From an uncultured Mycoplasmatota bacterium (GTDB taxonomy: Bacteria > Bacillota_I > Bacilli_A > RF39 > UBA660): 64,000 bases of DNA. Made by a program: the position numbers and the translations under genes. A model generated the notes under the pieces. The model was not told the origin of the DNA. It did no database searches and saw only the letters and a program-made list of their open reading frames with translations. This document shows, in pieces, positions 1 through 39,257 of this stretch. The stretch's first letter is position 1. Every line of letters starts with the position of its first letter. The stretch is taken from NCBI GenBank assembly GCA_945919295.1, contig CAMEJC010000001.1:16973-80972 (forward strand), in the 5' to 3' direction.

Positions 1-60
1 AATCTCAAAAATTTGTTGTATATTTGCATTGTAGGAATGTTTTTATAATTAAATTAAAAA

Positions 61-288
61 TTGATCATTATGAAAAAACAAAGTTTCAAAGAATGGTTGC
101 ACGAACCAGATGAAGAAGGAGCAACAGGAGAAATGGTTGTTGGGTTTTCGTTTTTGATACCAATAGTCACTTTCATACTAGCCTGTATCGGGACAAGAAC
201 TATTGAGTTTTGCATACTCCCTATTGCTTTTGTGGTACAAGGTTTGTATGTTCTATTGTTTTATTTGTTTAATAGTAAATCCAAATGA
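61..288 (+). CDS. small hydrophobic hypothetical protein
   Basis: 75-aa ORF with hydrophobic stretches; follows a promoter-like element at the window start (1-40). Confidence 0.35.
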   Translation: MIIMKKQSFKEWLHEPDEEGATGEMVVGFSFLIPIVTFILACIGTRTIEFCILPIAFVVQGLYVLLFYLFNSKSK

Positions 289-1019
289 TAGAAATGAAAA
301 TATATAATGGAGATTGTTTAGAGGTAATGAAAAACATACCAGATAAATCAGTTGATTTGGTTTTATGTGATTTACCTTATGGAACTACAAATTGCTCATG
401 GGATGTAATTATACCATTTGATAAACTTTGGGAACAATATAACAGAATAGTTAAAAACAATGGTGCAATTGTTTTGTTTGAACAAGAACCATTTTCATCA
501 TTGTTAAGATGTTCTAATTTAAAAGATTATAGATATGATATTTACTGGGAAAAAGAACGCATAACCAATATAATGCAGGTTAAGAAACGTGTAGGTAAAA
601 CGGTTGAAACAATATCTGTATTCTATAAAAATCAACCAACATACAACCCACAAATGGTTAAATATGATGGTCCTAAACGCTCAAATAAAGTTAAGAATGG
701 CAAACTTGGAAAACTTATTGATGATGCAAATGATAAAAAAGTTACAGAATACAATGATACAGGATTAAGATATCCTACACAAGTATGGAAATTCAAACGT
801 GACATTTTGACATCTAATCTTCATCCAACTCAAAAACCTGTATTGTTGCTTGAAGAACTTATAAAAACATTCACAAACGAAGGTGATGTTGTTTTAGATA
901 ACTGCATGGGGTCAGGTAGTACAGGCGTTGCATGTAAAAATACAAATAGAAATTTCATTGGCATTGAATTAGATAAAACTTATTTTGATATAGCAAAAAA
1001 TAGAATTGAAAACAACTAA
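285..1019 (+). CDS. DNA methyltransferase, beta-class (N6-adenine/N4-cytosine)
   Basis: N-terminal DLPY (motif IV, DPPY variant); C-terminal HPTQKP and LDNCMGSGSTGVACKNTNRNFIGIE (motif I FxGxG). Confidence 0.75.
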   Translation: MIEMKIYNGDCLEVMKNIPDKSVDLVLCDLPYGTTNCSWDVIIPFDKLWEQYNRIVKNNGAIVLFEQEPFSSLLRCSNLKDYRYDIYWEKERITNIMQVKKRVGKTVETISVFYKNQPTYNPQMVKYDGPKRSNKVKNGKLGKLIDDANDKKVTEYNDTGLRYPTQVWKFKRDILTSNLHPTQKPVLLLEELIKTFTNEGDVVLDNCMGSGSTGVACKNTNRNFIGIELDKTYFDIAKNRIENN

Positions 1020-1056
1020 TAAATTATTTTTTATATATTTATATAAATGATTTTTT

Positions 1057-1878
1057 ATGCAAGAAAAATGTGAATTATATTTAGGTAATTGTGTTGATGT
1101 ATTATCAAAATTAATAAATGATGGAATACAAGTTGATTTAACTATAACATCACCGCCGTATGATAATATATTAACATATCAAGGTACTTGTACTTGGAAT
1201 TTTGACATATTTAAAGAAATTGCTAATAAATTATACCAAATAACAAAAGATGGTTGTGTTGTCGTGTGGGTTGTTGGTGATCAAATAATAAACGGTTCAA
1301 AATCACTTACATCTTTTAAGCAAGCATTATATTTTCAAGAAATAGGTTTCAAGTTTCATGATGATATTATATTTGAAAAAAATTCACCATCTTTTCCACC
1401 AAAAAGAACATCTAAACGTTATGGTAATATATATGAACATATGTTCGTTTTAGTAAAAGGTAGAAACATACGTAATGATATTACATTGATTGCTGATAAA
1501 CCAAATAAATATGCTGGCTTATCTTCTTGGGGCAATTGTAATCATTATGATAAAAATGGTAACATTATAAATGGTAAAAAAATTGAAAATATACCAGATT
1601 TTAGTTTAAGAAATAATATATGGAAATATACAGTTGGTTGTAATAAAGATAAAAAATTCGGAAAACACCCTGCTGTATTTCCTGAACAACTTGTTCTTGA
1701 CCATTTGTTATCTTGGTCTGTTGAAAATGATTTAGTTCTTGACCCTTTCATGGGAAGTGGAACGACTGGAAAAGTATCATTATTGAATAACAGAAAATTT
1801 ATAGGTATTGAATTATGTGATACTTATTTTAATCAAGCCAAAGAACGAATTAATTTTTATAAAAACACTTTTTTATAA
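1057..1878 (+). CDS. DNA methyltransferase (SPPY motif; N4-cytosine or N6-adenine, beta-class)
   Basis: TSPPYDN motif IV near N-term; C-terminal FPEQL and LDPFMGSGTTGK plus NRKFIGIEL motif I. Confidence 0.75.
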   Translation: MQEKCELYLGNCVDVLSKLINDGIQVDLTITSPPYDNILTYQGTCTWNFDIFKEIANKLYQITKDGCVVVWVVGDQIINGSKSLTSFKQALYFQEIGFKFHDDIIFEKNSPSFPPKRTSKRYGNIYEHMFVLVKGRNIRNDITLIADKPNKYAGLSSWGNCNHYDKNGNIINGKKIENIPDFSLRNNIWKYTVGCNKDKKFGKHPAVFPEQLVLDHLLSWSVENDLVLDPFMGSGTTGKVSLLNNRKFIGIELCDTYFNQAKERINFYKNTFL

Positions 1879-1925
1879 ACAAAATTAAGCCATATATTAA
1901 AAATTTGTTGTATCTTTGCAGTATG
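1871..1925 (+). promoter_or_regulatory. class-A conserved promoter/leader element
   Basis: TTTTATAAACAAAATTAAGCCATATATTAAAAATTTGTTGTATCTTTGCAGTATG; contains TATCTTTG (TAnnTTTG) and a TATATT -10-like box; more than 28 copies in the window. Confidence 0.6.
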
Positions 1926-1974
1926 AAATAAAAAAAATAGGAAAATTATATAATAACTAAAAAAAATAGAAATT

Positions 1975-3351
1975 ATGAAAACTTTATCTCAATCAAAACA
2001 CATGTCTCATGAGTACTGTTGTACTATTGTTAAAATTGGCGAGGTTAAACCTATTGACGGTTCTGACTTTTTAGGTCAAGTTCTTGTGGAAGGTAGAACT
2101 ATTGTTGTTAGAAAAGATGAAATTCACGAGGGTGATATTTTGTTTTATGTTCAAAATGAATCTCAAATTAATAGAGATTTTACTTTTGTTAATAATTTAT
2201 TTGATGATAAAACATTAAATTATGATACATCACAAAAAGGATATATCAATAAGAATTGCCGTATAAGAATGGTTAAATTAAGAGGTGTTTTATCTATGGG
2301 ATTCTTATTTAGCGTTTCTTGTATGAAAAAATGGTATCCTAATTTCGATGTCGATATCAGCCAACATATTGGTGAGGATTTTGATACTGTAAATGGTGAG
2401 TTATTTGTTAAAGCTTATGTCCCACCTGTTAAAGAGTCTAATGTTAATCGAAATAAAAGTAAAAACAATAACTTAAATAAAATAGATTGTCTTATTCCTG
2501 GTAAATTTCAATTACATTATGATACACAACAACTGAATCGTAATATGGATAAAATTCAACCTAATGATGTAGTTTCTATTTCAGTTAAAATGCACGGAAC
2601 TTCTATTGTTATTGGTAATGTTTTGACTAAATATCCTAAATTTAATGGCCTATATTTTAAATTATTCCCATATTTACCTAAATTTCTAAAGTTTTATAAA
2701 GAAAAATATACTGTTATTTATTCTTCTCGAACTGTCATAAAAAATAGAAATATTAACCCTAAAGTAAAAGATGGTTATTATAGTAAAGATGTTTGGGGTG
2801 AATATTATGAACTACTTAAAAATTATATACCTGAAAATATGACAATTTATGGTGAAATTGTTGGATATGTCGGTGGTACTAACACTATGATACAAAAAGG
2901 TTATGATTATGGATGCAAACCAGGTGAAAATAAATTAATGATATATCGTATATCCACTGAAGATGAAACAGGTAAAAAATATGAGTGGAATGTGTCTGAT
3001 GTTTATGATTTCACTTTATTATTGAAAGATAAAGTTGAACTAAAAGATAAAATACACCCTATTGATATATTATATCACGGTACATTAAAAAACCTATATG
3101 AAGACGTTTCTATTACTACACATTGGAGCGAAAATGTTTTAGAAAAATTGAAAAATGATATAACATTCGGAATGGAACAAGACGAACCTATGTGTAGAAA
3201 TAAAGTACCAAGAGAAGGATTTTGTCTTAGAATCGATAATGATATTATTGATGAATGTTTTAAATTAAAATGTTTAAAATTCTTAAATAGAGAAAGTAAA
3301 CTCATTGATGATGGTGTTATTGATGATTTTGAAATGCAAGAACGTTATTAA
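1975..3351 (+). CDS. RNA ligase, Rnl2/Rnl5-like (N-terminal extra domain plus nucleotidyltransferase)
   Basis: KMHGTS matches ligase motif I KxHGT of Rnl2-type enzymes; REGFCLRID (motif IV-like) and KLKCLK (motif V-like) follow; about 190-aa N-terminal extension. Confidence 0.55.
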   Translation: MKTLSQSKHMSHEYCCTIVKIGEVKPIDGSDFLGQVLVEGRTIVVRKDEIHEGDILFYVQNESQINRDFTFVNNLFDDKTLNYDTSQKGYINKNCRIRMVKLRGVLSMGFLFSVSCMKKWYPNFDVDISQHIGEDFDTVNGELFVKAYVPPVKESNVNRNKSKNNNLNKIDCLIPGKFQLHYDTQQLNRNMDKIQPNDVVSISVKMHGTSIVIGNVLTKYPKFNGLYFKLFPYLPKFLKFYKEKYTVIYSSRTVIKNRNINPKVKDGYYSKDVWGEYYELLKNYIPENMTIYGEIVGYVGGTNTMIQKGYDYGCKPGENKLMIYRISTEDETGKKYEWNVSDVYDFTLLLKDKVELKDKIHPIDILYHGTLKNLYEDVSITTHWSENVLEKLKNDITFGMEQDEPMCRNKVPREGFCLRIDNDIIDECFKLKCLKFLNRESKLIDDGVIDDFEMQERY

Positions 3352-3353
3352 TT

Positions 3354-3941
3354 ATGATGATTAGTAAAAGATTAAATGTTGATGATATGTGCAAAAATAA
3401 GAGATGGTATAAAAAAGTAAAAGACTTTTTTGTATACAGCATTGGTTTGAATGTAAGAGATTGGTGGAATAGTATAAAATGGTATTTTAGTAATTTGAAG
3501 CGTTTTCAACCAGTGATTAAATCGTGGCGTTACTGGGATTATCAATATCAAGTTGATTTGTTTGTTTTCGGACTCAAGCAATTGGCGGATGCAATCGATA
3601 GATATGGACATGAAGAAGATGTATCACGCAAAAAAAAGGTTGCTGCAATTAAATCACTTATTGCCGAAATTGAACGTGATTATCAAGATGATGTGGATAG
3701 CCGTAATGAAGATTCTTATGCAAAATATTATGAGAGATACTATGCCGCACTGAAGAGAACGCGTAAAGCACATTATGACAAGATATTCAAACTGATTATC
3801 GGTCAGGACGAATACAAACTACATCAGATGGTCAAAGCCAAGTACGAAGCGTTATCTGAAGAAGAAAAAGAAAAATTCGATTATTTTTCCTCGTATGTAG
3901 AATTGTTCGACGGTTCTGGAATAGAAGGATGGTGGGATTAA
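3354..3941 (+). CDS. hypothetical protein
   Basis: 195-aa ORF; no class-A promoter, so probably co-transcribed with the ligase; visibly higher G+C than its flanks. Confidence 0.45.
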   Translation: MMISKRLNVDDMCKNKRWYKKVKDFFVYSIGLNVRDWWNSIKWYFSNLKRFQPVIKSWRYWDYQYQVDLFVFGLKQLADAIDRYGHEEDVSRKKKVAAIKSLIAEIERDYQDDVDSRNEDSYAKYYERYYAALKRTRKAHYDKIFKLIIGQDEYKLHQMVKAKYEALSEEEKEKFDYFSSYVELFDGSGIEGWWD

Positions 3942-4023
3942 AAAAATGAAAAACTTGAAATGGTGGCTTCAAAAAATTGTTATTGTAGAATGTCGAACTA
4001 TTATAAATCACAACAATTAGGAT

Positions 4024-4734
4024 ATGAAGATATTTGCTTGGTCAGACGGACATGGTGAGTTTCCACATAAATGGGAAAAAGAAGAACATGTCGACGTAGT
4101 TATAATAGCAGGTGATATTGTCCCATTGCATATTCAACGGGATCCAGAATCATCTTTGAATTGGTTTGAGAGTGAGTTCTTTGATTATGTCAGAAAGGTA
4201 AACGCAGATAAAGTTATACTCGTTGCAGGTAATCATGATTTTATGTTTGAGTATTTCGATAAGAGTTTTATTCTTTCCGAAATAAAGATGCACTCGTTAG
4301 ATGACAAACTTATCTATCTACAGGATGATATGTATGAGTATGGTGGTGAAAAGTTCTATGGAACACCTTGGATTGCCGACCTTCGGAATTGGGCATTCTA
4401 TGCAGAAGACTTGTATGAGAAATTCAGTCATATTCAAACAGGCACAACAATCCTTATAACACATATGCCTCCACATGTGATGAGTGTAGGTTCAACTTAT
4501 CCGTTTGATGATTTTAAGGGTTATCCACAAGAACGCAACTACGGAAGTTTTGCGTTGGCAAACAGAATGACTGAACTTCCGAATCTGAAACTAAATTTCT
4601 GCGGCCATGTCCACACTGGAACACACGGTGGTGTAAAACACGGAAACTGCACTATATACAACGTATCTATCAAAAATGAAGATTATGACAATGTCTATAA
4701 TCAAACTTATGTGGATACGGAAGAATTGATTTAA
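4024..4734 (+). CDS. calcineurin-like metallophosphoesterase
   Basis: SDGHGE, IIAGDIV and LVAGNHDF motifs of the MPP superfamily. Confidence 0.65.
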   Translation: MKIFAWSDGHGEFPHKWEKEEHVDVVIIAGDIVPLHIQRDPESSLNWFESEFFDYVRKVNADKVILVAGNHDFMFEYFDKSFILSEIKMHSLDDKLIYLQDDMYEYGGEKFYGTPWIADLRNWAFYAEDLYEKFSHIQTGTTILITHMPPHVMSVGSTYPFDDFKGYPQERNYGSFALANRMTELPNLKLNFCGHVHTGTHGGVKHGNCTIYNVSIKNEDYDNVYNQTYVDTEELI

Positions 4735-4855
4735 AATATAAATTCAATAATAATTTTTTTTATTATGTATAGTGAATATAATTCAATATAATTTAATATA
4801 ATAACTCATCATAAATATAACAAAAACAACTTTACATTTATACTATATAAATTGA

Positions 4856-6136
4856 ATGAAAACAATTAAGCTTAAAATAATGAACTCAATTGATTTGGAT
4901 TATGAGTTGAGGACTTATAATTCTGTGGTTCATTTTGCTTATAATCGTTTTCATGATGATAGTTCTGTTAAAGAGAAAGATGTCAGGTCTCAAGTAAATC
5001 AACTATTCAAAGGCAAGTTGAACTCATGGTTATTACAATGTGCTATCAAAGATGGTAAGTCAATACAGGAAAGAAATGAAAGTAAAAAAGTTATTTTTGG
5101 AGGCAAGTCATTGTATAAAAGGTATTTAAGAAAACTTATAGACAAAGAAGAATTCAACAAACAAAGACAACTTCCAATATCAAGTCAAGGTGAAATGTTA
5201 CGAAAAGGCAATAGAATGTTTGACTTTCACTTTGATAATCAATCACTTGTCTTTAAAGTATCAAAAAAGAAACACGTAGATATTAAATTAGGCAATATTC
5301 ATAGAAATCTTCAGAAAGAACTTAATAAACTCAATGAGTTATGCTATGATAAAAAGGCAACCATTTCGATAAAATTGAATAATGACTATATTTGGATAAC
5401 TTATGATGAGAAATTACTATGTAATCCAGTGAAATTCAATGAGTTGAAAGATAATAGAATCCTTGGATTAGATCTAAATCCTAATTATATTGGTTTGTCT
5501 GTTATTGAATTTGACAAAGAAGACAATTTTCAAGTTTTATATAAGCAAGTCTTTGACTTAAAGAAAATTACAGATAAAAATGCGTCAAAGAATAAAAGAC
5601 AATATGAGATAATCAAGATATGTCATACAATAAATAGTCTTATAAATTACTGGAAATGTAAGAAACTCTCTATAGAAGATTTGAATATAAAATCAAGCGA
5701 TAAAGGACAAGGGAAAAACTTTAATAGACTGTGTAATAATGTATGGGACAGGACATTAGTGTCTAATAAACTATTGATATTGAGTAATATATATGGGTAT
5801 GGACTTGTTAAAGTGAATCCTGTATACTCAAGTTTCATAGGTAATTTAGTTTATTGTGATTCAGAAACACCAGATATGGTTGCCGCTTCAATAGAAATAG
5901 CAAGAAGATCATATAAAAAATACGAAAAGAATTGGTTTTATCCTATCTTTGACATAGATTGTTTAGATGAGCAATGGAAGCAAACACTGACAGGAGTTAA
6001 AGATTGGAAAAACGCATTCTTAAAAATTAAAAACTCTAAAGTGAAATATAGAGTTCTGCTTAATGACATCGTTCAAAATGCAGTTTTCAGTAAATTCAAT
6101 AGAAAAAGCAAAGTTATTGTATATTCATTTGCATAA
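4856..6136 (+). CDS. TnpB/Cas12-like RuvC nuclease lacking the zinc finger
   Basis: N-term KTIKLKI...LRTYNSVVHFAYNRF matches the TnpB WED/N-terminal signature; RuvC-I ILGLDLNPNYIGLSV; RuvC-II LSIEDLNIK; KVNPVYSSF then ETPDMVAASIEIARR (RuvC-III, cf. DxNAAxNI) with no CxxC pairs between. Confidence 0.6.
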   Translation: MKTIKLKIMNSIDLDYELRTYNSVVHFAYNRFHDDSSVKEKDVRSQVNQLFKGKLNSWLLQCAIKDGKSIQERNESKKVIFGGKSLYKRYLRKLIDKEEFNKQRQLPISSQGEMLRKGNRMFDFHFDNQSLVFKVSKKKHVDIKLGNIHRNLQKELNKLNELCYDKKATISIKLNNDYIWITYDEKLLCNPVKFNELKDNRILGLDLNPNYIGLSVIEFDKEDNFQVLYKQVFDLKKITDKNASKNKRQYEIIKICHTINSLINYWKCKKLSIEDLNIKSSDKGQGKNFNRLCNNVWDRTLVSNKLLILSNIYGYGLVKVNPVYSSFIGNLVYCDSETPDMVAASIEIARRSYKKYEKNWFYPIFDIDCLDEQWKQTLTGVKDWKNAFLKIKNSKVKYRVLLNDIVQNAVFSKFNRKSKVIVYSFA

Positions 6137-6162
6137 CTTTTTATTGAATTTATATTTTAAAA

Positions 6163-6593
6163 TGAAGTACTACAGATATTCGGAAGAAGACATACGTGAT
6201 ATTCTGAACGCCAAAGATAAAAGAGAACTGATGGGGGTGTGGAATAGAATAAATGAGAATGGTTTGATGATAACCTGCTCGGCATGTAAGAATGACTATC
6301 CGTATTTCGAGAGTCCTGTTTTGAAAGATGAAGTTTGGAAGAACGTCACCACATACTATAACTTGCATGATGGATGTATAATGCGTGCAGCATCTGTTCC
6401 GCAGGAAATCAACGCATCGAAAATATATAAGTTAAAGATGCTTATGAATGTGCGCACAAGCAATACAGAAGTATGTGTTTGCAGGAAATGTATGGAAAAA
6501 GCGCTTGGGCATCCTCTTCATGAAAGTGATTTGAATGCCGTTGTTCCAATGAACAAAAAGATTATTAATGAATTGAAGATGACTTCTGCTTAA
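6163..6593 (+). CDS. Cys-rich (zinc-ribbon-like) hypothetical protein
   Basis: Start moved to MKYYRYSEED just after the TnpB-like stop; contains CSACKND and CVCRKCMEKALGH cysteine clusters; coding-like, higher G+C. Confidence 0.4.
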
Positions 6594-6654
6594 TTTGTGG
6601 ATGTCATTTTGCAAATTATGCTATACAAAATGCACTTTTTTTGAATTTTTCTTC

Positions 6655-6702
6655 AAAAAAATTTGGTTGTTTAAAAAAATTGTAGTATCTTTGCAGTGTG
6701 AA
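6655..6702 (+). promoter_or_regulatory. class-A promoter (variant) upstream of the MmeI-like gene
   Basis: AAAAATTGTAGTATCTTTGCAGTGTG. Confidence 0.5.
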
Positions 6703-6742
6703 ATTGGATGTTAAAAACATAGATTATTAACAAGTTAATTTA

Positions 6743-9235
6743 TTGTTATTTATGAGTAAAAGCAAGTTTTTTGAAAAAATAAAAGAAGCTAAAATAGAGC
6801 GTACGGTAGAGGATGTTTATAATGAGGGAATCAACCTCTATTTTCCGACAGACAAAATCATTGAATACCCATTTTCTTGTGACGGATTCGTTGACACAAA
6901 AACCGATAATGGAAAAGTTTTGAAACTAATCATTGAATACAAGTTCAATGAAATAATGTCTAACAGAGTAGCTCGGGCGAAGGTGCTTGTTCAGGTTGTC
7001 TATTACATCAAGAGGTTCGAGCAGAACGGTATGATTCTTCCGAATGTGTGTATGGTAGGCGATAAGGATGAGTGTTTCGTTATGCACACAAACGAACTTC
7101 TCAAATATCTTGATGAGAGTGTTGATTGGTCAATTTCACCATCAAACGCTGCCGCTTCAAACCCTGATTTGGTTCTTAAGATGTCACAAGACGCAAATAT
7201 AAATCCGTTTATCTTTGAAGTCAATGAGGATTTCAGTTTCAAATCTGTTGCCGATAAAATCAAAGATTTGGCAGATAACATTCAAAGATATGTTCGAGTA
7301 ACAGAACATAACCTATCAAAGATTTTCGACTACTTCTGTAAGAATGTTTTGAAGGAAAAAACAAAATTGAGTGCTCATGACATGGTTGAAATCTTTATGG
7401 GTGTTATCGGTGATAAAATGAATTATTTTCAACACCCAAGCAACCCTAATGTTCTTGTTTGCAAAGGAAAGAACGTGAATATGGATGAAAATGCGTTCAA
7501 GTCTTTTTTCGGATATTTTGACCGAAACTATACACCACAAGAAACTATGCGTCTTAACGGGATTGCCGATAGACTTATAATAGAAGCCGACAGACGAAAA
7601 AGTGGTGATTTTTGGACACCTACAATATTCGTTGACTATGCTCACGATATGATTTCAAAAGCTCTCGGTGAAGATTGGAAAGAAAAGTATGTTGTGTGGG
7701 ACAACTGTTGCGCATCACTTAACCTTACGAGAGATTACAAGTTCGGTGAACTATACTGCTCAACCCTTTATCAAAGTGAACTAAACATCGGTGCTGAATA
7801 TAACCCAGAAGCAACAAAGTTTCAATTTGACTTCCTAAATGATGAGATTGTTGGTAAAAATTCTTTGCTCGGAGTGTATAATGATAAACTACCGAAAGGG
7901 CTGAAGGACGCACTTATCAATAACAAACCTATTGTGTTCTTTTTGAACCCTCCTTATGCTACAAGTGCAACATTTACTGCTACAAATCAAAAGACTGATG
8001 GCTGCTGTGACAATATGGTTGCTGAAATGATGCGTAATGACAAACTCGACCTTGCATGCCGTAATATGATAACTCAATTCCTTTATCGTATTATTAGAAT
8101 TAAAAATGAATTTAATTTAACTAATTGTCATATAGCACTTTTTACAAATCCAAACTTTATTTGTGCTAATAGTTTTACTATGTTCAGAAACCTTTTCTTT
8201 GAAAACTTCAAATATGATAATGGTATTTACTTTAATGCAAGCCACTTTGCTGATGTTAGCGACAAATGGGGTATTGCTTTTGAAATTTGGCACAATGGAA
8301 CACAAACTGATAGAGATAACTTTATTCATAAAGTTGTTGAAGTTGAAAATGGTGAAATTGTTGATAAATTTGACAAAGGTATTTACAACTGCGATAATGC
8401 AATTAATACAAGTGAATGGATTAGAGAGATTGATGTATCAAAAACGAAAATTGATTTACCAATACTTAAAAGTGGTATAAATCAATTTGAAAATCCAAAA
8501 AACAAAAAAATTGGTCATTTAACAGATGACGCTATCGGTTGCTATTATCACGTTGCAAGTGATGTTTATCATTCAGCAACTTATGTGGCATTATTTACTG
8601 CTAATTGCTCTCATCCAAGCGGTAAATGGGGTATCACTAAAAATAACTTCGATAGGATAATGGTAACATTTGCCGCTAGAAAATTGGTAAATGATTGTTG
8701 GTACAACGACAAAGATATTTTCATTGCTCCTAACACCGAACACCCTGCATACAATGAGTTTGTGAACGACAGTTTGATTTATAGTCTGTTTCATTCATCA
8801 TCAAACCAATCTTCACTCCGTAATGTTGATTACAAGGGAAAGAAGTGGGACATCAAAAATGAGTTCTTTTGGTTGTCAAATAAAGAGATTGAAAGTCTTG
8901 CTAACACAAATGGATTCACACAAACCTACAATGATGCAAGAACTTCAAAAGAAAGATATGTTTACAACAAACTACAAACCATAACATTATCACCTGAAGC
9001 ACAAGCAGTCTTGGACAAGGCAAATGAGATAGTTAGAAACACATTCAAATATCGTGAAATATTCGACCAAGAACACCCCGAATATCAGATTATGAATTTT
9101 GATTGTGGATGGTATCAAATCAAAGCTGTTGCAAAGCAATATGCCAAATCAGATTATGATGAGTTTGTCAAGTTATTCAAGGCGTTAGAAAACAAAATGC
9201 GTCCAATGGTCTATACGCTTGGTTTTTTGAGATAA
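6743..9235 (+). CDS. MmeI-like Type IIL/IIG restriction-modification fusion enzyme (PD-ExK nuclease plus gamma-class N6-adenine MTase)
   Basis: N-term GFVDTKTDNGKVLKLIIEYK (PD-(D/E)xK, cf. MmeI GFVD...IEMK); GDFWTPTIFVDYAHDMI (motif X); VWDNCCASLNL (degenerate motif I); FLNPPYATS (motif IV NPPY); long C-terminal TRD-like region; preceded by a class-A promoter. Confidence 0.5.
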   Translation: MLFMSKSKFFEKIKEAKIERTVEDVYNEGINLYFPTDKIIEYPFSCDGFVDTKTDNGKVLKLIIEYKFNEIMSNRVARAKVLVQVVYYIKRFEQNGMILPNVCMVGDKDECFVMHTNELLKYLDESVDWSISPSNAAASNPDLVLKMSQDANINPFIFEVNEDFSFKSVADKIKDLADNIQRYVRVTEHNLSKIFDYFCKNVLKEKTKLSAHDMVEIFMGVIGDKMNYFQHPSNPNVLVCKGKNVNMDENAFKSFFGYFDRNYTPQETMRLNGIADRLIIEADRRKSGDFWTPTIFVDYAHDMISKALGEDWKEKYVVWDNCCASLNLTRDYKFGELYCSTLYQSELNIGAEYNPEATKFQFDFLNDEIVGKNSLLGVYNDKLPKGLKDALINNKPIVFFLNPPYATSATFTATNQKTDGCCDNMVAEMMRNDKLDLACRNMITQFLYRIIRIKNEFNLTNCHIALFTNPNFICANSFTMFRNLFFENFKYDNGIYFNASHFADVSDKWGIAFEIWHNGTQTDRDNFIHKVVEVENGEIVDKFDKGIYNCDNAINTSEWIREIDVSKTKIDLPILKSGINQFENPKNKKIGHLTDDAIGCYYHVASDVYHSATYVALFTANCSHPSGKWGITKNNFDRIMVTFAARKLVNDCWYNDKDIFIAPNTEHPAYNEFVNDSLIYSLFHSSSNQSSLRNVDYKGKKWDIKNEFFWLSNKEIESLANTNGFTQTYNDARTSKERYVYNKLQTITLSPEAQAVLDKANEIVRNTFKYREIFDQEHPEYQIMNFDCGWYQIKAVAKQYAKSDYDEFVKLFKALENKMRPMVYTLGFLR

Positions 9236-9265
9236 AAAATTCAACAACTCTAAAATAAAATATAA

Positions 9266-9682
9266 TTGACAGGTAAAACACACATAACAAGCGGTATAGC
9301 ATTATCATTATTAATTTGCAATAATTTTGTTTCTTTTATATTGGTTTTAGTAGGATTAATATTACCTGATATCGACCATAATAATAGTACATTAGGAAAG
9401 ATAATATCTATTATTTCTAAAATTTTAAAACATAGAGGAATAATGCACTCTATTTGGTTACCTTTAATATTATTATTTATTAATAAGCCAATATTCTATG
9501 GATATTGTTTACATTTGATGCTCGATATATTAACTAAAAATGGCATTAAACCACTTAATCCTATATTTAATTTTTCTATAAAAATACCTTTAATAAAAAC
9601 AGGTGGTGTTTTTGAAAAAATGATTTTTTATTTAATAATTTTTTCAATTTTTATTATTTGTTTAACAAAATGTATTTTATAA
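9266..9682 (+). CDS. membrane protein (YdjM/DUF457-like metal-dependent hydrolase fold?)
   Basis: Multiple TM segments; ILPDIDHNNS motif. Confidence 0.4.
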   Translation: MTGKTHITSGIALSLLICNNFVSFILVLVGLILPDIDHNNSTLGKIISIISKILKHRGIMHSIWLPLILLFINKPIFYGYCLHLMLDILTKNGIKPLNPIFNFSIKIPLIKTGGVFEKMIFYLIIFSIFIICLTKCIL

Positions 9683-9728
9683 ACAAAATTAACCCATATA
9701 TTAAAATATTTTTGTACTTTTGCGGTGT
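9675..9728 (+). promoter_or_regulatory. class-A promoter
   Basis: TTTTATAAACAAAATTAACCCATATATTAAAATATTTTTGTACTTTTGCGGTG. Confidence 0.55.
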
Positions 9729-9805
9729 TAAATGACAACCTATGTATTTTGGTTATTAAAATAATTTTTGTATATTTGTAATGATAACAAATTAAATTTA
9801 GTATT

Positions 9806-10036
9806 ATGGCAAAATTAATTAATGTATATAAGGGAATGGTCCTTACTCCCGAAGAGGAGAGAGAGATGTTTGTTGAAACATTCAAGTATCTTGATAAGAA
9901 GTTAGAAAAATTTCTTTCAAGTAAGTATTTTGATAAACTCTATGAAGAAGATGAGTTTATTGGTGCCGCAGTAGAAGATGCAGCAACCAGAGTATCACAA
10001 ATGATTGATTATTGTGAAAGTGGTTTTTGGGATTAA
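9806..10036 (+). CDS. hypothetical protein
   Basis: 76-aa acidic ORF downstream of class-A promoter 9675-9728. Confidence 0.4.
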   Translation: MAKLINVYKGMVLTPEEEREMFVETFKYLDKKLEKFLSSKYFDKLYEEDEFIGAAVEDAATRVSQMIDYCESGFWD

Positions 10037-10041
10037 TAGTT

Positions 10042-10419
10042 ATGTCTATGGATACAAAAGTTAATGTGGGAAAAAGTAGTAGTTTCCTAAAAAGAGTATT
10101 TGGAGTTACGTCAATGGAGAAATCAGTTAACCATGTTTATACTACATTTAAAGGTGGTTATGGTTCATATAATCTTGGTATGACCTATTGGGATTATTTT
10201 TGTTTATGGGGGCATTTAAGGATTCGTTATGATGAAACAGATTTAATTGATGGATGGAAACATATTAGTATACATGGATATAGAAATGGATATACATACA
10301 CGCCTGTTAAAAAATTGTTGTGGACTTTTAAGCATCATATTGCGTTTAATAATAAATGGCCATTTATAAAAATTGGTTTCCATAGAATATGGCCGTTGTA
10401 TGATAAAGAAAAATTTTGA
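10042..10419 (+). CDS. hypothetical protein
   Basis: Start moved to MSMDTK to avoid overlapping the upstream stop. Confidence 0.4.
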   Translation: MSMDTKVNVGKSSSFLKRVFGVTSMEKSVNHVYTTFKGGYGSYNLGMTYWDYFCLWGHLRIRYDETDLIDGWKHISIHGYRNGYTYTPVKKLLWTFKHHIAFNNKWPFIKIGFHRIWPLYDKEKF

Positions 10420-10426
10420 TAAAATT

Positions 10427-11197
10427 ATGGATATGACAAAAGAGGAAAAAATAAATAATTCAAATGTAATTAAAAATATTTCTTATGATCAAAAAGAAAT
10501 ATTATTTAATGTGATGAAGTTATATAATAATGGTGAGCCTTTTGATTGTGATATAACAGCTTCATCATTAAAATTTTATGAACAAAAAAAGAATGATAAA
10601 TATTTTATACCTGAACCAAAATATTTATTTGATGTTTATCCACAATTTGATAAAATACAAAAAATAACACCTTTTAATAAAATACCATTAGAAGATGGTT
10701 CAATTAAATCAATTGTCGTTGATTTACCTTTCGTAATATGTCCTAAAACATGTGCTTCAATGAAAAGGGATAATAAAGAAAATAAAAAAAGTTGTATAAT
10801 AGCAAATAGATTTAGTTCTTGGTATCCATATATGGAAGGGTATGAAAATATGTATTGGTGGATGAATGAATGTAATCGTGTATTAGCTGATGGCGGTATA
10901 ATCTGTTGGAAAATGCAAGACACTATTAGTGCTAGTATATATCATAGTTTCATTGAATTTTGTAAAATTTGTGGACAAGATGTTGGTTTATATTTAATAG
11001 ATGAGTTCTTCTTGGAGGCTAAATCACGCTTAATAAGCGCACCAAAAATGAAACAACAACAACATAGTAGAAAATACACATCAAGTTTCATTGTTCTAAA
11101 AAAAGACATTAAAAACGGAAATAAATATTCACCATTAAAAATACTAGAACAATGTAAAAAAAATGTTTTTGAAGGTAAAACATACGAATTTAAATAA
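10427..11197 (+). CDS. hypothetical protein, possible degenerate DNA MTase (DLPF)
   Basis: Start at MDMTKEEK just after the upstream stop; IVVDLPF resembles MTase motif IV, but no clear FxGxG motif. Confidence 0.3.
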   Translation: MDMTKEEKINNSNVIKNISYDQKEILFNVMKLYNNGEPFDCDITASSLKFYEQKKNDKYFIPEPKYLFDVYPQFDKIQKITPFNKIPLEDGSIKSIVVDLPFVICPKTCASMKRDNKENKKSCIIANRFSSWYPYMEGYENMYWWMNECNRVLADGGIICWKMQDTISASIYHSFIEFCKICGQDVGLYLIDEFFLEAKSRLISAPKMKQQQHSRKYTSSFIVLKKDIKNGNKYSPLKILEQCKKNVFEGKTYEFK

Positions 11198-11203
11198 AAT
11201 TTT

Positions 11204-11892
11204 ATGGAAATAAAATTATATAAAGGTGATTGTTTTGATTTATTAAAACAAATAAAAAATAACACTATTGATTTAGTATTAATTGACCCACCTTACGAAG
11301 TTTCCAGAGATACTAACTTCGCAAAAGGAAAAATAAAAGGTACTGATGTAGATAGATTTAGAGTATCAATGAATTTTGGTGATTGGGATAATAACTTTAC
11401 TGGGTTAGACATTGTAATTAAAGAATGTTATAGAATATTAAAAAAAGGCGGAACATTAATATGTTTCTACGATTTATGGAAAATTACTGTTCTTAAAGAA
11501 TATTTTGAAACAGCAAAGTTTAATCAAATAAGGTTTATTGAATGGATAAAAACAAATCCTGTACCATTAAACAGTATAATAGCAGAGAAATTGCATTAGT
11601 TGGTGTAAAAGGTGGAAAACCAACATTTAATTCTGAATACGATAATGGTATATATAAGCATCCTATTTGCCATGATAAAGATAGGTTTCATCCAACACAA
11701 AAACCACTATCTTTGATTGAAGAGTTGGTGTTAAAACATTCAAATGAAGGTGATTTAGTCCTTGATTGTTTCATGGGAAGTGGTACAACAGGTGTTGCTT
11801 GTAAAAAATTAAATAGAAATTTCATAGGAATGGAAATTAATGAAACTTATTTCAATAAAGCAAAAGAACGAATTGTAAACAAAAATATGTAA
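11204..11892 (+). pseudogene. frameshifted beta-class DNA methyltransferase (paralog of 285-1019)
   Basis: N-part has IDPPYE; C-part has HPTQKP and LDCFMGSGTTGVACKKLNRNFIGMEI; the two parts are in different frames and overlap at 11542-11599; the alignment to 285-1019 is continuous across the shift. Confidence 0.6.
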
Positions 11893-11897
11893 ATAGT

Positions 11898-12158
11898 ATG
11901 ACAGCAAAGGAGTATATATTACAACAAGTCGATAAACTTACGACTATGTTTGACGGAATAGAGTTGCGCTATGCGTATGACCAAATGGCAAATTTTCATA
12001 TTATTGAAGTAACACCGGAATCCATTCGTAGAGGAAACGAAGACTTTGTTAATCAAGAGTATGAAATAGACAAAGAGTTTTCGGAATTATTCCCTGATGA
12101 AGATTTGTTGATAACGGAACCAACTGCATTGACAGTATCTGTGCCGACAGAATATTAA
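11898..12158 (+). CDS. hypothetical acidic protein
   Basis: 86-aa ORF. Confidence 0.4.
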   Translation: MTAKEYILQQVDKLTTMFDGIELRYAYDQMANFHIIEVTPESIRRGNEDFVNQEYEIDKEFSELFPDEDLLITEPTALTVSVPTEY

Positions 12159-12260: not shown

Positions 12261-12318
12261 TTTTATTTTTTTTTATAAACAAATTTAACTCATATATTAA
12301 AAATTTGTTGTACTTTTG
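12261..12318 (+). promoter_or_regulatory. class-A promoter
   Basis: TTTTATAAACAAATTTAACTCATATATTAAAAATTTGTTGTACTTTTGTTGTATC. Confidence 0.55.
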
Positions 12319-12354
12319 TTGTATCAAAGTAAAACAATTAAAATTAAGTTCATT

Positions 12355-13563
12355 ATGCGTAGATATATTAAAAATTTTTTAAGATCAAGAGGTGTTGTTG
12401 AATATAGTGAACAAATGATATATATGGGTTCATTAAAACGTGATGTGCCTAATTTACGTCTAAACAATGACAGATTTATGGTTGCTGCTTTGAGAATGTT
12501 ATTTGATGGTGAACTATCTAATGATGAAGATAAACGCTCATTAAATGTAATTCTTAAACATATTAATAATTGTGGTCAGGTATATAATTATAACTATAAC
12601 CTTAATGGGTTAAAATTAAGTGAGTTGTCTAATAAATATATTGATGAAATAAAATTAAATTCAGAAAACGATAAGGAACGTAGTGCAAAAACAAAACGTT
12701 GTAATGGTAATGGTTATAAGATTATTCCAATTTACTCTTTTGAAGAAGCAAAACAATATAGTAAATATACTGAATGGTGTGTAACTAAAGAATTAGATGA
12801 TTTTAAAGATTACACTAAATGTGGTAATAAGCTTTATTTTTGTTTGAAAGATGGTTTTGAACAAGTTCAACGTAATGACGATGGAGCACCATTGAATGAA
12901 TATGGCTTATCGATGCTTGCTGTTTTAGTCGTTTATAATGGAGATTTGTCTATTATATCAACTAGATATAATCATGAACATAACGGTGAGAATAATGACA
13001 ACTTAATAACTGTTGAACAATTGGAAAATGTTCTTGATGTTAATTTTTATGATATATTTAAACCATATACTACTGAAGAAATGGATGAACTTGGCATTAT
13101 CTTAATTAACCAAGCTCAATCTCTACTTGATAGTGGTAAAGAACCAAGTGAGGTTTTTGAAACTTGTTATGAGTTTTCTGAAGGGTTTGCTGTTGTGTTC
13201 TTAAATAATAAAACTAATTATATTGATACGAATCATAAGTTATTATTACCTAATCAATGGCTTGATTTTTGCTGTAATTTTAAAGAAGGATTTGGACAAG
13301 TTGAAATTGATCATAAATGGAATTTTATTAATGCTAATGGAGAATTATTATCCCAAAATCAATGGTTTGATACTTGTTTTAGTTTTTCTGAAGGGTTTGC
13401 TGTTGTTAGGCTAAATAATAAATATAATTTCCTAAAAACTAATGGAGAATTATTATCACCGAATCAATGGTTTGATAAAATTCGTGATTTTGAAGAAGGT
13501 TTTGCTGAAGTTGAATTAAACAATAAAAGATATAAAATTAATACTAAAGGTGAATTGTTGTAA
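12355..13563 (+). CDS. WG-like beta-repeat protein (paralog A)
   Basis: Start at MRRYIKNF by paralogy with 13651; C-terminal 4 repeats of roughly EGFAxVxLNNKYNFIxxNGELLSPNQWFD (WG-repeat-like); class-A promoter 12261-12318. Confidence 0.55.
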   Translation: MRRYIKNFLRSRGVVEYSEQMIYMGSLKRDVPNLRLNNDRFMVAALRMLFDGELSNDEDKRSLNVILKHINNCGQVYNYNYNLNGLKLSELSNKYIDEIKLNSENDKERSAKTKRCNGNGYKIIPIYSFEEAKQYSKYTEWCVTKELDDFKDYTKCGNKLYFCLKDGFEQVQRNDDGAPLNEYGLSMLAVLVVYNGDLSIISTRYNHEHNGENNDNLITVEQLENVLDVNFYDIFKPYTTEEMDELGIILINQAQSLLDSGKEPSEVFETCYEFSEGFAVVFLNNKTNYIDTNHKLLLPNQWLDFCCNFKEGFGQVEIDHKWNFINANGELLSQNQWFDTCFSFSEGFAVVRLNNKYNFLKTNGELLSPNQWFDKIRDFEEGFAEVELNNKRYKINTKGELL

Positions 13564-13577
13564 TTTGAAAAAAATCA

Positions 13578-13626
13578 TTAACATAGAAATCGTTCATTTA
13601 GAAATTTTATTGTATCTTTGCAGAGT
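13578..13626 (+). promoter_or_regulatory. class-A promoter (variant)
   Basis: ATTTTATTGTATCTTTGCAGAGT. Confidence 0.5.
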
Positions 13627-13650
13627 AAAATTTAAACAATAGTTATCTAT

Positions 13651-15513
13651 ATGAGAAGATATGTAAAAAGATACTTAATGTCAAAAGGGATTTCTGATTA
13701 TAATGAACAAATGAAATACACTGGTTCATTACAACATGATATTCCTAATCTACACCTTGATAAATCAAAATTCCTACTTGCTGCCTTGAGATTGTATTTT
13801 GGGGGTGAGTTGAATAGTGAAGAAAATGTACGTTCATTAGATACGGTACTTAAGTACATCAATAAAGGTAATCATACAAATGAGTATGATTATAACCTTA
13901 ATGGGTTATCATTAATAGAACTATCTAATAAGTATAAGAACGATATACGTCAAGACTCTGAAAACGACAGAAAACGCAGTGAATTAGTTAAACGTAGCAA
14001 TAATGGTGGTTACAACATTATTCCTATTAATTCCTTTGAAGAAGCAAGTAAATATTCTAAATACACATCTTGGTGTGTGACACAGGATAAAAATGCGTTT
14101 GATAGTTATACAAGAGGTGGTAGTAGATTTTATTTTTGTTTAAAACAAGGTTTTGAAAGTGTTGAGCAAGATAATAACGGTGCTCCATTAAATGCTTATG
14201 GCTTATCAATGATAGCAGTGAATGTTGATATGAATGGTGATTTGACAAGAATTACTACAAGATACAATCATGAGTTTAATGGTGAGAATAATAATGGTTT
14301 ATGTACTGTTGAGCAATTGGAAGATGCACTTGATGTTAATTTTTATCAGGTATTTAAACCATATACGAGAGAGGTGTTACATTCTATGGGAATAGTGTTG
14401 TTTGATGAGGTTCAAGATTTGCTTGATAGTGGTAAAGACCCAAAAAAGTTATTTGATAGTGTCGATAAATTTTATGAGGGTTTTGCAATAGTTAAATTAA
14501 ATGATAAATATAATGATAAATATAATTTTATAGATACAAAAAGTAATTTATTATTACCAAATCAATGGTTTGACTGGTGTAGTGATTTTAAAGAAGGTTT
14601 TGCTATTGTTGAATTAAATGGTAAGTATAATTTTATAGATATAAATTGTGAAATATTATCATCAAATCAATGGTATGATTATTGTTTCAATTTCAGAGAA
14701 GGTTTTGCAATAGTTAAATTAAATGATAAATATAATTTTATAGATATAAATTGTGAAATATTATCATCAAATCAATGGTTTGACTCTGCTTGTGGTTTTA
14801 AAGATGGATTTGCACGAGTTAATTTAAAAGGTAAATTTAATTTTATAGATAGAAATGGTGAAATATTATCACCAAATCAGTGGTTTGATGATTGTGGAAA
14901 TTTTCATGAAGGTTTTGTAAGAGTTGGATTAAATGGTAAGTTTAATTTTATTGACACTAATGGTAAGTTATTATTACCAAATCAGTGGTTTACGAACGTA
15001 TATGATTTTCATGAAGGATTTGCACGAGTTAATTTAAAAGCTAAATTGAATTTTATAAATAAAAAAGGTGAGTTATTGTCCAAAAATCAGTGGTTTGATT
15101 ATTGTAGAAAATTTAATGATGGTTTTTCTGGCGTTTTTTTAAATGATAAATGGAATTTTATAGACACTAATGGTAAGTTATTATCACCTAATCAATGGTT
15201 TGATGAGGTTTATGATTTTGAAGATGATTATGCGAGAGTTAAATTAAATGATAAGTATAATTTTATTGACACAAAAGGTAAGATATTGTCACCTAATAAA
15301 TGGTTTGATTATGTTTTTAGTTTTGATGGTGGTTTTGCTGTTGTTAGGCTAAATAATAAATATAATTTCCTAAAAACTAATGGTGAATTATTATCACCAA
15401 ATCAATGGTTTGATAAGTGTAGTTCGTTTCGTAACGGATTTTCTGATATTAAAATAGACGATAAATTGTTTAAAATTAATAAAGATGGAGAAATATTATC
15501 TAATGAAAAATAA
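13651..15513 (+). CDS. WG-like beta-repeat protein (paralog B, about 12 repeats)
   Basis: N-terminal 270 aa homologous to 12355-13563; about 12 tandem roughly 30-aa repeats; class-A promoter 13578-13626. Confidence 0.6.
   Translation: MRRYVKRYLMSKGISDYNEQMKYTGSLQHDIPNLHLDKSKFLLAALRLYFGGELNSEENVRSLDTVLKYINKGNHTNEYDYNLNGLSLIELSNKYKNDIRQDSENDRKRSELVKRSNNGGYNIIPINSFEEASKYSKYTSWCVTQDKNAFDSYTRGGSRFYFCLKQGFESVEQDNNGAPLNAYGLSMIAVNVDMNGDLTRITTRYNHEFNGENNNGLCTVEQLEDALDVNFYQVFKPYTREVLHSMGIVLFDEVQDLLDSGKDPKKLFDSVDKFYEGFAIVKLNDKYNDKYNFIDTKSNLLLPNQWFDWCSDFKEGFAIVELNGKYNFIDINCEILSSNQWYDYCFNFREGFAIVKLNDKYNFIDINCEILSSNQWFDSACGFKDGFARVNLKGKFNFIDRNGEILSPNQWFDDCGNFHEGFVRVGLNGKFNFIDTNGKLLLPNQWFTNVYDFHEGFARVNLKAKLNFINKKGELLSKNQWFDYCRKFNDGFSGVFLNDKWNFIDTNGKLLSPNQWFDEVYDFEDDYARVKLNDKYNFIDTKGKILSPNKWFDYVFSFDGGFAVVRLNNKYNFLKTNGELLSPNQWFDKCSSFRNGFSDIKIDDKLFKINKDGEILSNEK
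14478..14779. repeat. exact internal DNA repeats inside the WG-repeat gene (about 39 bp and 49 bp exact copies)
   Basis: GAGGGTTTTGCAATAGTTAAATTAAATGATAAATATAAT at 14478 and 14700; TATAATTTTATAGATATAAATTGTGAAATATTATCATCAAATCAATGGT at 14626 and 14731. Confidence 0.75.
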
Positions 15514-29490: not shown

Positions 29491-29502
29491 TATATAAAAA
29501 AA

Positions 29503-29536
29503 AATAGTCAACATTAATTTGCTGACTATTTTTTTA
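29503..29536 (+). terminator. rho-independent terminator
   Basis: ATAGTCAACATTAATTTGCTGACTAT hairpin plus TTTTTTT. Confidence 0.55.
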
Positions 29537-29539
29537 TTG

Positions 29540-29611: not shown

Positions 29612-29618
29612 AAAAATA

Positions 29619-32014: not shown

Positions 32015-32045
32015 AATGTAATCTCCTTTTTATTGAATTTATATT

Positions 32046-32717
32046 TTATTCCCAATTTTTATAATATTCATTACAATCATTAGCTGTCCCTAAAAGATGT
32101 TCGTTTCCTTCATATGGAATACATTGTTTGCCCGAATTACCACCTAATACATGGAAAAAGTTGTCACTAAAAAATCCAAATATTGCTGCTTCCCAAATAC
32201 ATTTACTATCAAGTCTTACTAACACTTTACTCTCAAATGGTTTCAACGTGGTGATGTCGAATTTAGTTTTTTCTAAAGTTTTGGTTTTGGCATCCCAATG
32301 ATAATTATTTTCTTTAAGAATATCAAATAATTTTTGTTTTTCTTCTTCAGTTGCAAACCGTATTTCAGAAATATGTTCTTTATCACAAAGTGGTGAATCA
32401 TTTATATATATAGAAGTATCAAATGTGCAAATAGGAACTGCTACATATTTATAAATGTATCTCTTATTTTCATTTTCTTTGAAAATAAAGATCCAACTAT
32501 TAAGAGATGTAACAAACAATATATCACCATCTTTAAACTCGGACTCAATTAATTTATCCGAATTTTTTGGTTTTACTCGATAGTTGAAGTTTTTCCAATC
32601 CCATAAAGGTTCTATATTCATATCTGTCCATTTATTAGGAATAGCACCATAAATTTGAATTTGCTCACCTCTCTCGTAAGCTTGCATGATTTCAATTTTC
32701 TCTTTTGTTGTTGCCAT
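32046..32717 (-). CDS. hypothetical protein, family A (MQAYERGE...CIPYEGNEHLLGT)
   Basis: Shares N-term TKEKIEIMQAYERGE, internal IRFATEEEKQKLFD and C-term CIPYEGNEHLLGTxxDCxxYYKNWE with 33392, 35621 and 48077. Confidence 0.5.
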   Translation of the reverse strand: MATTKEKIEIMQAYERGEQIQIYGAIPNKWTDMNIEPLWDWKNFNYRVKPKNSDKLIESEFKDGDILFVTSLNSWIFIFKENENKRYIYKYVAVPICTFDTSIYINDSPLCDKEHISEIRFATEEEKQKLFDILKENNYHWDAKTKTLEKTKFDITTLKPFESKVLVRLDSKCIWEAAIFGFFSDNFFHVLGGNSGKQCIPYEGNEHLLGTANDCNEYYKNWE

Positions 32718-39244: not shown

Positions 39245-39257
39245 TTATTCATTTTAT

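Follow-up and report, generated by a model that had tools for sequence, protein, structure and literature searches.

A mobile, zinc-finger-less TnpB-family cassette from a phage lineage carries a conserved structured RNA at the 3' end of its nuclease gene

We analysed a 64,000-nucleotide stretch (the window) of contig CAMEJC010000001.1, assigned to an uncultured Mycoplasmatota bacterium and carrying a phage genome, in which an initial annotation had singled out a 426-residue open reading frame (ORF) with an ATG start as a TnpB/Cas12-like RuvC nuclease without zinc finger. TnpB is the ancestor type of CRISPR-Cas12. We consider it likely that positions 4761-6159, which contain this gene, are a copy of an IS607-type element that is non-autonomous because it lacks the transposase TnpA, belongs to a phage lineage, and encodes a TnpB-family nuclease together with an omega-RNA scaffold. 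The observations behind this reading are the fold of the protein, its catalytic triad and missing zinc finger, the boundaries of a mobile cassette, natural empty sites, the distribution of the family and its partial association with TnpA, and a conserved RNA structure at the 3' end of the gene.

The TnpB N-terminal signature and the RuvC motifs quoted in the initial annotation are all present: the N terminus reads MKTIKLKI...YNSVVHFAYNRF, and GLDLN (D206), IEDLN (E274) and TPDMVAAS (D340) follow in the order RuvC-I, II, III, with KVNPVYSSF preceding the segment ...TPDMVAASIEIARR that holds D340. We aligned the window protein with 68 homologues (30-49% identity to it); D206, E274 and D340 are shared by 69/69 sequences, likewise E347 and R351, and D340 stands in the canonical D-x-x-A-A context. 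The triad thus appears catalytically intact, as had been proposed, and a TldR-like loss of RuvC catalytic residues is not the case. Searches with the window protein alone against Pfam, PHROGs, NCBIfam and PDB sequences gave just a weak RuvC match at residues 201-278, and no TnpB model of Pfam, PHROGs or NCBIfam was matched. The family profile had three matches only among PDB sequences, namely Cas12f, an 'IS605 OrfB' protein and Cas12b; all three begin at the RuvC-II glutamate and end at the ...P.Y(T/S)S strand, and this glutamate aligns with that of Cas12f and the IS605 OrfB-type protein. In fold searches, Cas12f and Cas12k were the best structural matches, and TnpB and RuvC resolvases were also matched, with 264-313 residues aligned to Cas12f/TnpB versus 111-144 to RuvC-type resolvases. 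The similarity to solved TnpB and Cas12f structures runs through the whole chain, as the N-terminal 200 residues align with their WED and REC lobes. Together, fold searches and family-profile alignment indicate the full WED/REC/RuvC architecture of TnpB/Cas12f, and the protein is a TnpB/Cas12-type RuvC nuclease with an intact D-E-D site. Of the checks suggested at the outset, structure bore the assignment out, and the hidden Markov model (HMM) search did so in part: plain profile searches miss the TnpB Pfam families, and it is the family profile or structure that links the protein to TnpB/Cas12.

Between RuvC-II and RuvC-III, the zinc-finger/TNB insertion is replaced in the window protein by a 13-residue linker. 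The linker from the YSS strand to D340 measures 10-13 residues in 69/69 sequences, contains CxxC in none of them, and no conserved Cys column exists across the alignment. The missing zinc finger, correctly read from the single sequence, is therefore a family trait, and this excludes a sequencing error that hides one. RuvC-III is followed by a C-terminal extension of ~70 residues with conserved W384, K392, Y398 and R399, and the Fanzor or RuvC-II-rearranged trait, in which the catalytic Glu has moved to just before the zinc finger, was not found. Loss of the C4 zinc finger has been reported for large, partly virus-specific TnpB branches, RIIIr-4 among others (PMC10691335), so this domain is typical, not obligatory. 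But does the window protein simply belong to RIIIr-4, the zinc-finger-less, virus-enriched TnpB clade of Altae-Tran et al. (2023)? The absent C4 zinc finger and the occurrence in viruses are as reported for that clade (PMC10691335). However, RIIIr-4 is defined by a change from Asp to His in RuvC-III, the very position that is an invariant Asp here; compared by clade definition, the window family is not RIIIr-4 as published. Membership is thus unlikely, and as the zinc finger was lost in other large branches too (PMC10691335), the window lineage more likely represents one of those.

The 3' part of the gene, its last ~215 nt, is under constraint at the nucleotide level, as is the 23-nt tail behind it. 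In a codon analysis of 352 pairs among 76 ORFs, the fraction of identical codons at identical residues was 0.60-0.63 for residues 1-35 and 0.47-0.59 for residues 31-355, and rose to 0.65-0.78 from residue ~351 to the end. For the same region, RNAalifold predicted six helices from a plain MAFFT alignment of 31 copies (~260 nt), comprising 31 pairs, 17 of them with compensatory changes. Over these helices 94.5% of cells are paired, versus 28-42% when partner columns were slid, and 152 cells are compensatory versus 50.5 +/- 8.0 in shuffles, of which 0/500 reached 152. The loop of helix 2, GAGCAAUGGAAGCAAAC, is near-invariant at the nucleotide level. Helices 1-5 were turned into a covariance model, R1, whose sole match in the window is the scaffold core (Table 1); it also matches the corresponding place in ~40 of 51 loci that are more distant. 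Among 34 matches at E<=0.001, from 33 distant loci that had no part in building R1, 25 of 26 pairs carry a compensatory change and 89.7% of cells are paired versus 24-44% when slid; being fitted to R1, this alignment leans towards the structure.

Folding around the stop codon of each member gave a two-tier hairpin in nearly all of the family. The left arm falls within the final ~45 nt of the ORF, the right arm after the stop codon; the hairpin ends 7 nt before the right end, and (G)TATTTTR, a terminus common to most sub-lineages, then closes the element. Across 24 copies aligned with MAFFT, the outer stem (13 bp) has 89.7% of cells paired versus 34-57% when slid and compensatory double changes in 9/13 pairs, a covariation that 0/500 shuffles reached, and RNAalifold recovers this stem independently. 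The view that no terminal hairpin is obvious had to be given up on account of this covarying stem. The omega-RNA predicted in the initial annotation fared better: covariation and synonymous constraint (~5906-6159) support an RNA that overlaps the 3' end of the gene, but the structure ends at 6159 and does not extend to 6750. Frequent G.U pairs place the structure on the sense strand, and since IS607 elements move as double-stranded DNA (PMC10690162), the most plausible reading is an RNA. Judged by conserved structure, an RNA that overlaps the gene's 3' end and stops at the right end looks like an omega-RNA scaffold, and by analogy it probably guides the nuclease. Rfam holds no family for it, with a lone sub-threshold match to TwoAYGGAY (E=0.57). 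Inspected by eye, the A-rich segments upstream offered no convincing pseudoknot partner for the UAUUUUA terminus, and the terminal columns were too invariant for covariation.

Could the protein instead work independently of a guide, as a RuvC-type resolvase or protein-guided homing endonuclease, with the 3' structure as an mRNA terminator or stability element, or as a recombinase-binding end? In favour of this, the hairpin with its UAUUUUA tail looks like an intrinsic terminator, the structural matches include RuvC resolvases, and the zinc finger/TNB domain is missing. However, the structural alignment takes in the WED and REC lobes and is far longer for Cas12f/TnpB than for resolvases, a constrained RNA of ~200 nt with six helices and near-invariant loops greatly exceeds what a terminator needs, and a serine recombinase acting on duplex DNA would not select compensatory pairs with G.U wobbles. 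This explanation is therefore improbable.

The gene is not part of an operon-like block with the neighbouring RNA ligase and phosphoesterase genes, as had been suggested: 4761-6159 is a mobile 1.4-kb cassette inserted there. Proteins 88-91% identical to the window protein are found in four or more unrelated contexts: the window phage, where the gene follows a Metallophos gene; pig-gut phage contigs, where it follows another Metallophos gene, 37% identical to the window's; a 198-kb contig, between a gene without family match and one weakly matching the T4-gp15 tail-completion protein; and an 87-kb contig, amid small ORFs. DNA similarity to all other copies begins at 4760/4761, as seen against the copies in loci L004, L085, L086 and L089, and ends at 6159, with 86-91% identity in between and unrelated flanks. 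The metagenome contigs L119 and L120 match the window on either side of the cassette at ~86% identity and lack the cassette itself; in these clean empty sites, the Metallophos gene is followed directly by a 143-aa gene after a spacer of ~20-29 nt. The insertion point is <=~10 nt from the ATG (6162) of the 143-aa gene downstream. A further contig, L003, is identical to the window over 2649-7456 and diverges upstream of 2649, inside the RNA-ligase gene, which shows that the ligase/phosphoesterase neighbourhood is incidental. Megablast of window 3000-9000 against GenBank phages gave no match.

At the ends of the cassette, the occupied and empty sites reveal no duplication beyond an ambiguous microhomology of 3-7 nt, and the two ends are unlike each other save for T-rich termini, i.e., there are no terminal inverted repeats. 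The empty site of L119 already holds ...TTTTATTATTATG at the left-junction point. Because TATTAT stands at every left junction and also in this empty site, it may belong to the left end as its first bases, or else be no transposon sequence but a target motif kept from the insertion site that resembles a target-adjacent motif (TAM). A TA core common to target motif and right-end terminus (TATTA/... and ...TTTTA/, the slash marking the breakpoint) would fit the junctions, but alternatives would do so as well. The leader before the ATG is 35-225 nt long in other sub-lineages, the shortest version being a promoter-like TTGACA-N17-TATATT block that abuts the ATG. In L021, L022, L092 and L094, this block of ~35 nt (about -36 to -1) makes up the whole left end and ends 6-8 nt before the ATG, implying a nearly leaderless mRNA. 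The leader may function as a promoter; a sigma-70 promoter/terminator scan was uninformative, with 19 sites versus 13.7 expected.

These boundaries also bear on the idea that the gene is a domesticated, immobile TnpB derivative that serves the phage, for instance by cutting DNA of the host or of a competitor, jointly with the RNA ligase and phosphoesterase next to it. The window contains no TnpA, a Metallophos gene lies upstream of the gene in each of two phage groups, and the hundreds of closely similar, almost uniformly 426-aa database proteins described below suggest purifying selection. A fixed orthologous locus would show flanks that diverge as much as the gene, and the opposite is observed: identical ends occur in at least four unrelated contexts, close relatives of the window phage have a clean empty site, L003 breaks off inside the RNA-ligase gene, and several diverged copies exist in other phages. 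The window phage and the pig-gut phage do not share an orthologous insertion site, as the Metallophos genes are just 37% identical and the genes downstream unrelated. We thus regard domestication as quite improbable. Hardly conceivable is a miniature type V CRISPR-Cas12 effector of the phage with a nearby array: Cas12f and Cas12k are the best structural matches and compact type V systems are known from phages (PMC12607003), but 1-12000 and the surroundings of the gene contain no CRISPR-like array or spaced direct repeat, the neighbours are unrelated phage genes, the gene moves as a 1.4-kb single-gene cassette, and part of the family is linked to an IS607 TnpA.

What supports the IS607-type reading beyond the cassette itself is the family to which it belongs. 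An exhaustive search yielded 1008 clusters at 50% identity, and hundreds of database proteins are 85-100% identical to the window protein, nearly all of 426 aa. Most members carry the precomputed Pfam tag PF27229 'SSO2105_N', and some are named 'IS605 OrfB family transposase' by JGI. Relatives in GenBank phages come from Lak megaphages (in as many as five places of one genome), from other uncultured huge phages, and from Campylobacter phages and one Thermus phage. At least 189 loci, often several per contig, were found in IMG/VR by an alignment-based scan, which was needed because a scan with the single protein gave no close relative there. Between paralogues of the same genome, shared DNA is confined to the stretch from ~35-225 nt before the ATG to ~25-80 nt past the stop codon. 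A set of 185,579 species-representative genomes yielded only 28 loci, almost all of them on contigs of metagenome-assembled genomes (MAGs) and several with multiple copies per contig, so the lineage is essentially phage-restricted. Two or three diverged copies each lie on one 88.7-kb 'Clostridia' MAG contig (L092-L094) and on a 360-kb 'Bacilli' MAG contig (L100/L105), which are probably mis-binned phage genomes.

A serine-recombinase TnpA of the IS607 type (~200 aa) abuts the gene on the same strand, at -19 to +53 nt from the ATG, in 11/91 loci, and one locus has a Y1 TnpA 1.1 kb upstream. Neither type, nor a second tnpB-like copy, is present within the 64-kb window. The reported lack of TnpA thus holds for the window copy, a TnpA-less derivative, and not for the family, 12% of whose copies have an abutting IS607-type TnpA; the family is of IS607 type, with most copies, the window's included, lacking the transposase. 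A canonical zinc-finger TnpB (HTH_OrfB_IS605 + OrfB_IS605 + TNB) is also encoded in the pig-gut phages of L004 (4680-6482) and L089 (5474-6697), a few kb before the zinc-finger-less cassette, so that two TnpB lineages coexist in one phage genome. In L004 it is preceded by a Resolvase-type TnpA, forming a full IS607 element; no resolvase was called in L089. In both loci the nrdD region is interrupted by intein, NUMOD3 or GIY-YIG genes.

We would also like to place the element beside known systems. A named relative is ISCaje4 (ISfinder name) of Campylobacter phage CP220, whose TnpB is 34% identical to the window protein over 97% of its length (E=3e-73). ISCaje4 is likewise phage-borne and has a short linker, PQYSSFIGNLVYRVHQLPDYVLASIEIGRR, in place of the zinc finger; it is annotated as 'IS200/IS605 family' with TnpB and a resolvase-like TnpA fragment. 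This serine-recombinase-type remnant lies directly upstream of the gene, whereas the window copy, from a gut-phage clade, has none. The CP220 locus gave no match at E<=0.01 to the covariance model of the 3' RNA. With characterised IS607 elements such as the C. botulinum IStron (PMC10690162), part of the window family shares the order of serine-recombinase TnpA then TnpB, and the window element shares the lack of terminal inverted repeats and target-site duplications, TnpA-less copies beside full ones, an omega-RNA(-like) structure over the tnpB 3' end that stops at the right end, and probably an insertion that adjoins a short motif resembling the right-end terminus. Of the IS607 hallmarks, a serine-recombinase TnpA directly upstream is missing from the window copy, and a scarless empty site without inverted repeats or duplication is present, in a flank that happens to carry an inverted right-end copy. 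Characterised IS607 TnpBs keep the zinc finger and have G-rich TAMs (TGGG) and a GG core, in contrast to the A/T-rich junctions (TATTAT ... TATTTTA), missing zinc finger and missing group I intron here. To the ISDra2 and ISFba1 TnpBs and Cas12f (solved ribonucleoprotein structures 8h1j, 8iaz, 8dzj, 8j12), the window protein shows 13-16% sequence identity, and it differs by the lack of a TNB/zinc-ribbon insertion and by its conserved ~70-aa C-terminal extension. Like Seg and Mob of T4-like phages (PMC13565253), the cassette is a selfish single gene in an intergenic spacer, absent at that site from related phages; these endonucleases recognise DNA through protein contacts at syntenic sites, while the cassette also occupies unrelated sites and has a candidate guide RNA. 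In sum, the element fits IS607-type TnpB in structure, catalytic residues, RNA and family-level transposase, and departs from it in the zinc finger and the matches to curated HMMs.

How might such an element work? In IS605/IS607 TnpB systems, the 3' end of the nuclease gene serves as the guide-RNA scaffold and ends at the right end, the adjoining flank forms the guide, and the target is the 'donor joint' of TAM plus flank, i.e., the empty site (PMC10690162). The DNA of the C-terminal extension plus a 23-nt tail folds in the sense transcript into a six-helix RNA of ~200 nt. By analogy with characterised TnpB elements, the protein would bind this RNA as its omega-RNA scaffold, and transcription into the flank would supply a guide of ~16-20 nt. 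The candidate guide overlaps the start of the 143-aa gene downstream and is identical, from the ATG onward, to the empty sites of L119 and L120, where it adjoins a T-rich motif. The ribonucleoprotein (RNP) would then cut DNA where a T-rich TAM (candidate TATTAT/TATTA) joins the flank sequence directly. Such an unoccupied site could arise by excision or be present in a related, co-infecting phage, and recombinational repair from the occupied copy would reinstate or spread the element, a form of homing. New insertions at unrelated sites would need mobilisation by a serine-recombinase TnpA supplied in trans from full-length relatives.

Several points weigh against the reading of 4761-6159 as an IS607-type element with a guided nuclease. 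Curated TnpB HMMs (PF01385 OrfB_IS605, PF12323, PF07282, TIGR01766) are unmatched by the window protein, the Pfam models OrfB_IS605, HTH_OrfB_IS605 and Cas12f1-like_TNB stay below threshold on it, and sub-threshold PF07282 (TNB) matches occur in only 8/69 family members. In characterised relatives, the zinc finger/TNB domain touches nucleic acid, and cleavage without it is an assumption. The single-sequence RNA fold is no more stable than shuffles (z = -1.1), so that the case for the RNA rests on covariation, and the terminal hairpin with UAUUUUA may act as a terminator and yield guide-less transcripts. The breakpoint is ambiguous within ~7 nt, with three empty-site reconstructions that fit about equally; left-junction motifs differ among sub-lineages with none in common, which bears on the identity of the TAM. 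Lastly, the 64-kb window contains no TnpA, so that the window copy may not be mobile at present.

Table 1. Positions in the window of the element, its predicted RNA and related terminal sequences.
Feature	Position	Strand	Basis or remark
Left end / 5' leader, 95 nt	4761..4855	+	First ~60 nt conserved within clade
TATTAT, left junction	4761..4766	+	In all four unrelated contexts, after unrelated DNA
tnpB-like gene, 426 aa	4856..6136	+	WED/REC/RuvC architecture without zinc finger
Catalytic residues D206; E274; D340	5471-5473; 5675-5677; 5873-5875	+	Within tnpB-like gene
ORF part under extra nucleotide-level constraint, residues ~351-426	5906..6136	+	Codon analysis
Omega-RNA-like scaffold core	5957..6089	+	RNAalifold, covariance model
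Helix 1	5962-5969 with 5985-5991	+	RNAalifold
Helix 2	5971-5972 with 5980-5981	+	Loop GAGCAAUGGAAGCAAAC
Helix 3	6032-6038 with 6049-6055	+	RNAalifold
Helix 4	6056-6059 with 6080-6083	+	RNAalifold
Helix 5	6064-6067 with 6071-6074	+	RNAalifold
Terminal hairpin across stop codon; lineage-specific inner stem	6091..6152; outer stem 6091-6103 with 6140-6152	+	Covariation
Right-end terminus TATTTTA	6153..6159	+	Homology with all other copies ends after 6159
Candidate guide AAATGAAGTACTACAGATAT	6160..~6179	+	Predicted from TnpB/IS607 biology (PMC10690162)
Inverted copy of right-end terminal 21 nt	4730..4752	-	Native flank left of insertion; exact 17-mer
Third exact copy (23 nt) of right-end terminus	32026..32048	+	Spacer between two minus-strand genes

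The right-end terminus recurs outside the element as CTTTTTATTGAATTTATATTTTA, in exact copies of 21-23 nt, a length not expected by chance. The copy left of the insertion contributes to a 27-nt inverted repeat with arms at 4730-4756 and 6135-6161 that are 93% complementary; the distant one lies just upstream of a ribosome-binding site and ATG. Extra right-end copies are absent from other positions of related loci, and a general phage regulatory motif as their cause is unsupported there. They might reflect a phage motif of promoter-like character, TATAAAT, to which the hairpin arm is similar, the remnant of another copy, or a recombination site.

Other features of the window concern the phage itself. 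It is unusually rich in DNA methyltransferase-like genes (285-1019, 1057-1878, 10373-11197, 11204-11892, 26535-28124 on the minus strand, and 6743-9235). The last of these, an ORF of 830 aa, comes directly after the element region; it contains FFLNPPYA, a motif characteristic of N6-adenine methyltransferases, and matches nothing in Pfam or PHROG. The plus-strand ORFs 11204-11599 and 11542-11892 lie in overlapping frames and jointly amount to one N6/N4 DNA methyltransferase, with DPPY in the first and TQKP...FMGSGTTG in the second, which could mean a frameshift, a pseudogene or a programmed shift. Two adjacent WG-repeat proteins at 12316-15513 (plus strand) are encoded by 105-nt coding tandem repeats of up to 8.7 copies, and a C-rich tandem repeat of 13/26 nt (CCCTCCCTATGTAT...) at 62702-62826 is conspicuous in a genome of 28% GC. 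At ~29000-30500, plus-strand genes with positive GC skew give way to minus-strand genes with negative skew, which could be a boundary of divergent modules or a replication landmark. From 30000 to 64000, the minus strand has short ORFs only (all <320 aa) and no recognisable structural genes; stop-codon recoding as the cause was rejected, as reassignment does not lengthen the ORFs, and the region thus holds many small genes. Of seven tRNAs in the whole window, a tRNA-Leu(taa) + tRNA-Ser(tga) pair occurs twice, 15 kb apart (39157-40330 and 54271-54549, minus strand).

Finally, what does this lineage add to our view of TnpB? Phage-encoded TnpB is a phenomenon already known, and the novelty first claimed was overrated: ISCaje4 has been annotated since 2010, PF27229 exists, and zinc-finger-less and virus-borne TnpB branches have been described (PMC10691335). 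Our search of the literature found no experimental work on the present lineage. Our analysis adds its conserved RNA, exact ends and empty sites, and the finding that it is essentially phage-restricted: a lineage missed by curated TnpB profiles is now documented in which the 3' end of the gene doubles as a six-helix RNA, and which is nearly confined to phages such as Lak megaphages and Campylobacter phages, mostly without TnpA. If the nuclease is active, it would be a compact zinc-finger-free TnpB whose TAM is probably A/T-rich, which would make it a sensible choice when mining for editors and a test case for the contribution of the zinc finger/TNB domain. The occupied and empty alleles in close phages offer a natural setting in which possible RNA-guided homing by TnpB during co-infection could be studied. 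More tentatively, and with somewhat less than even confidence, we propose that the TnpA-less copies act as RNA-guided homing or exclusion elements between co-infecting phages, their zinc-finger-free RNP, with a C-terminal extension whose coding nucleotides also form the guide-RNA scaffold, cutting the unoccupied allele of a related phage at a T-rich TAM, after which the element is copied in or the competitor eliminated. If true, this would be an RNA-guided analogue of the Seg and Mob homing endonucleases of T4, and a naturally zinc-independent programmable nuclease of 426 aa.

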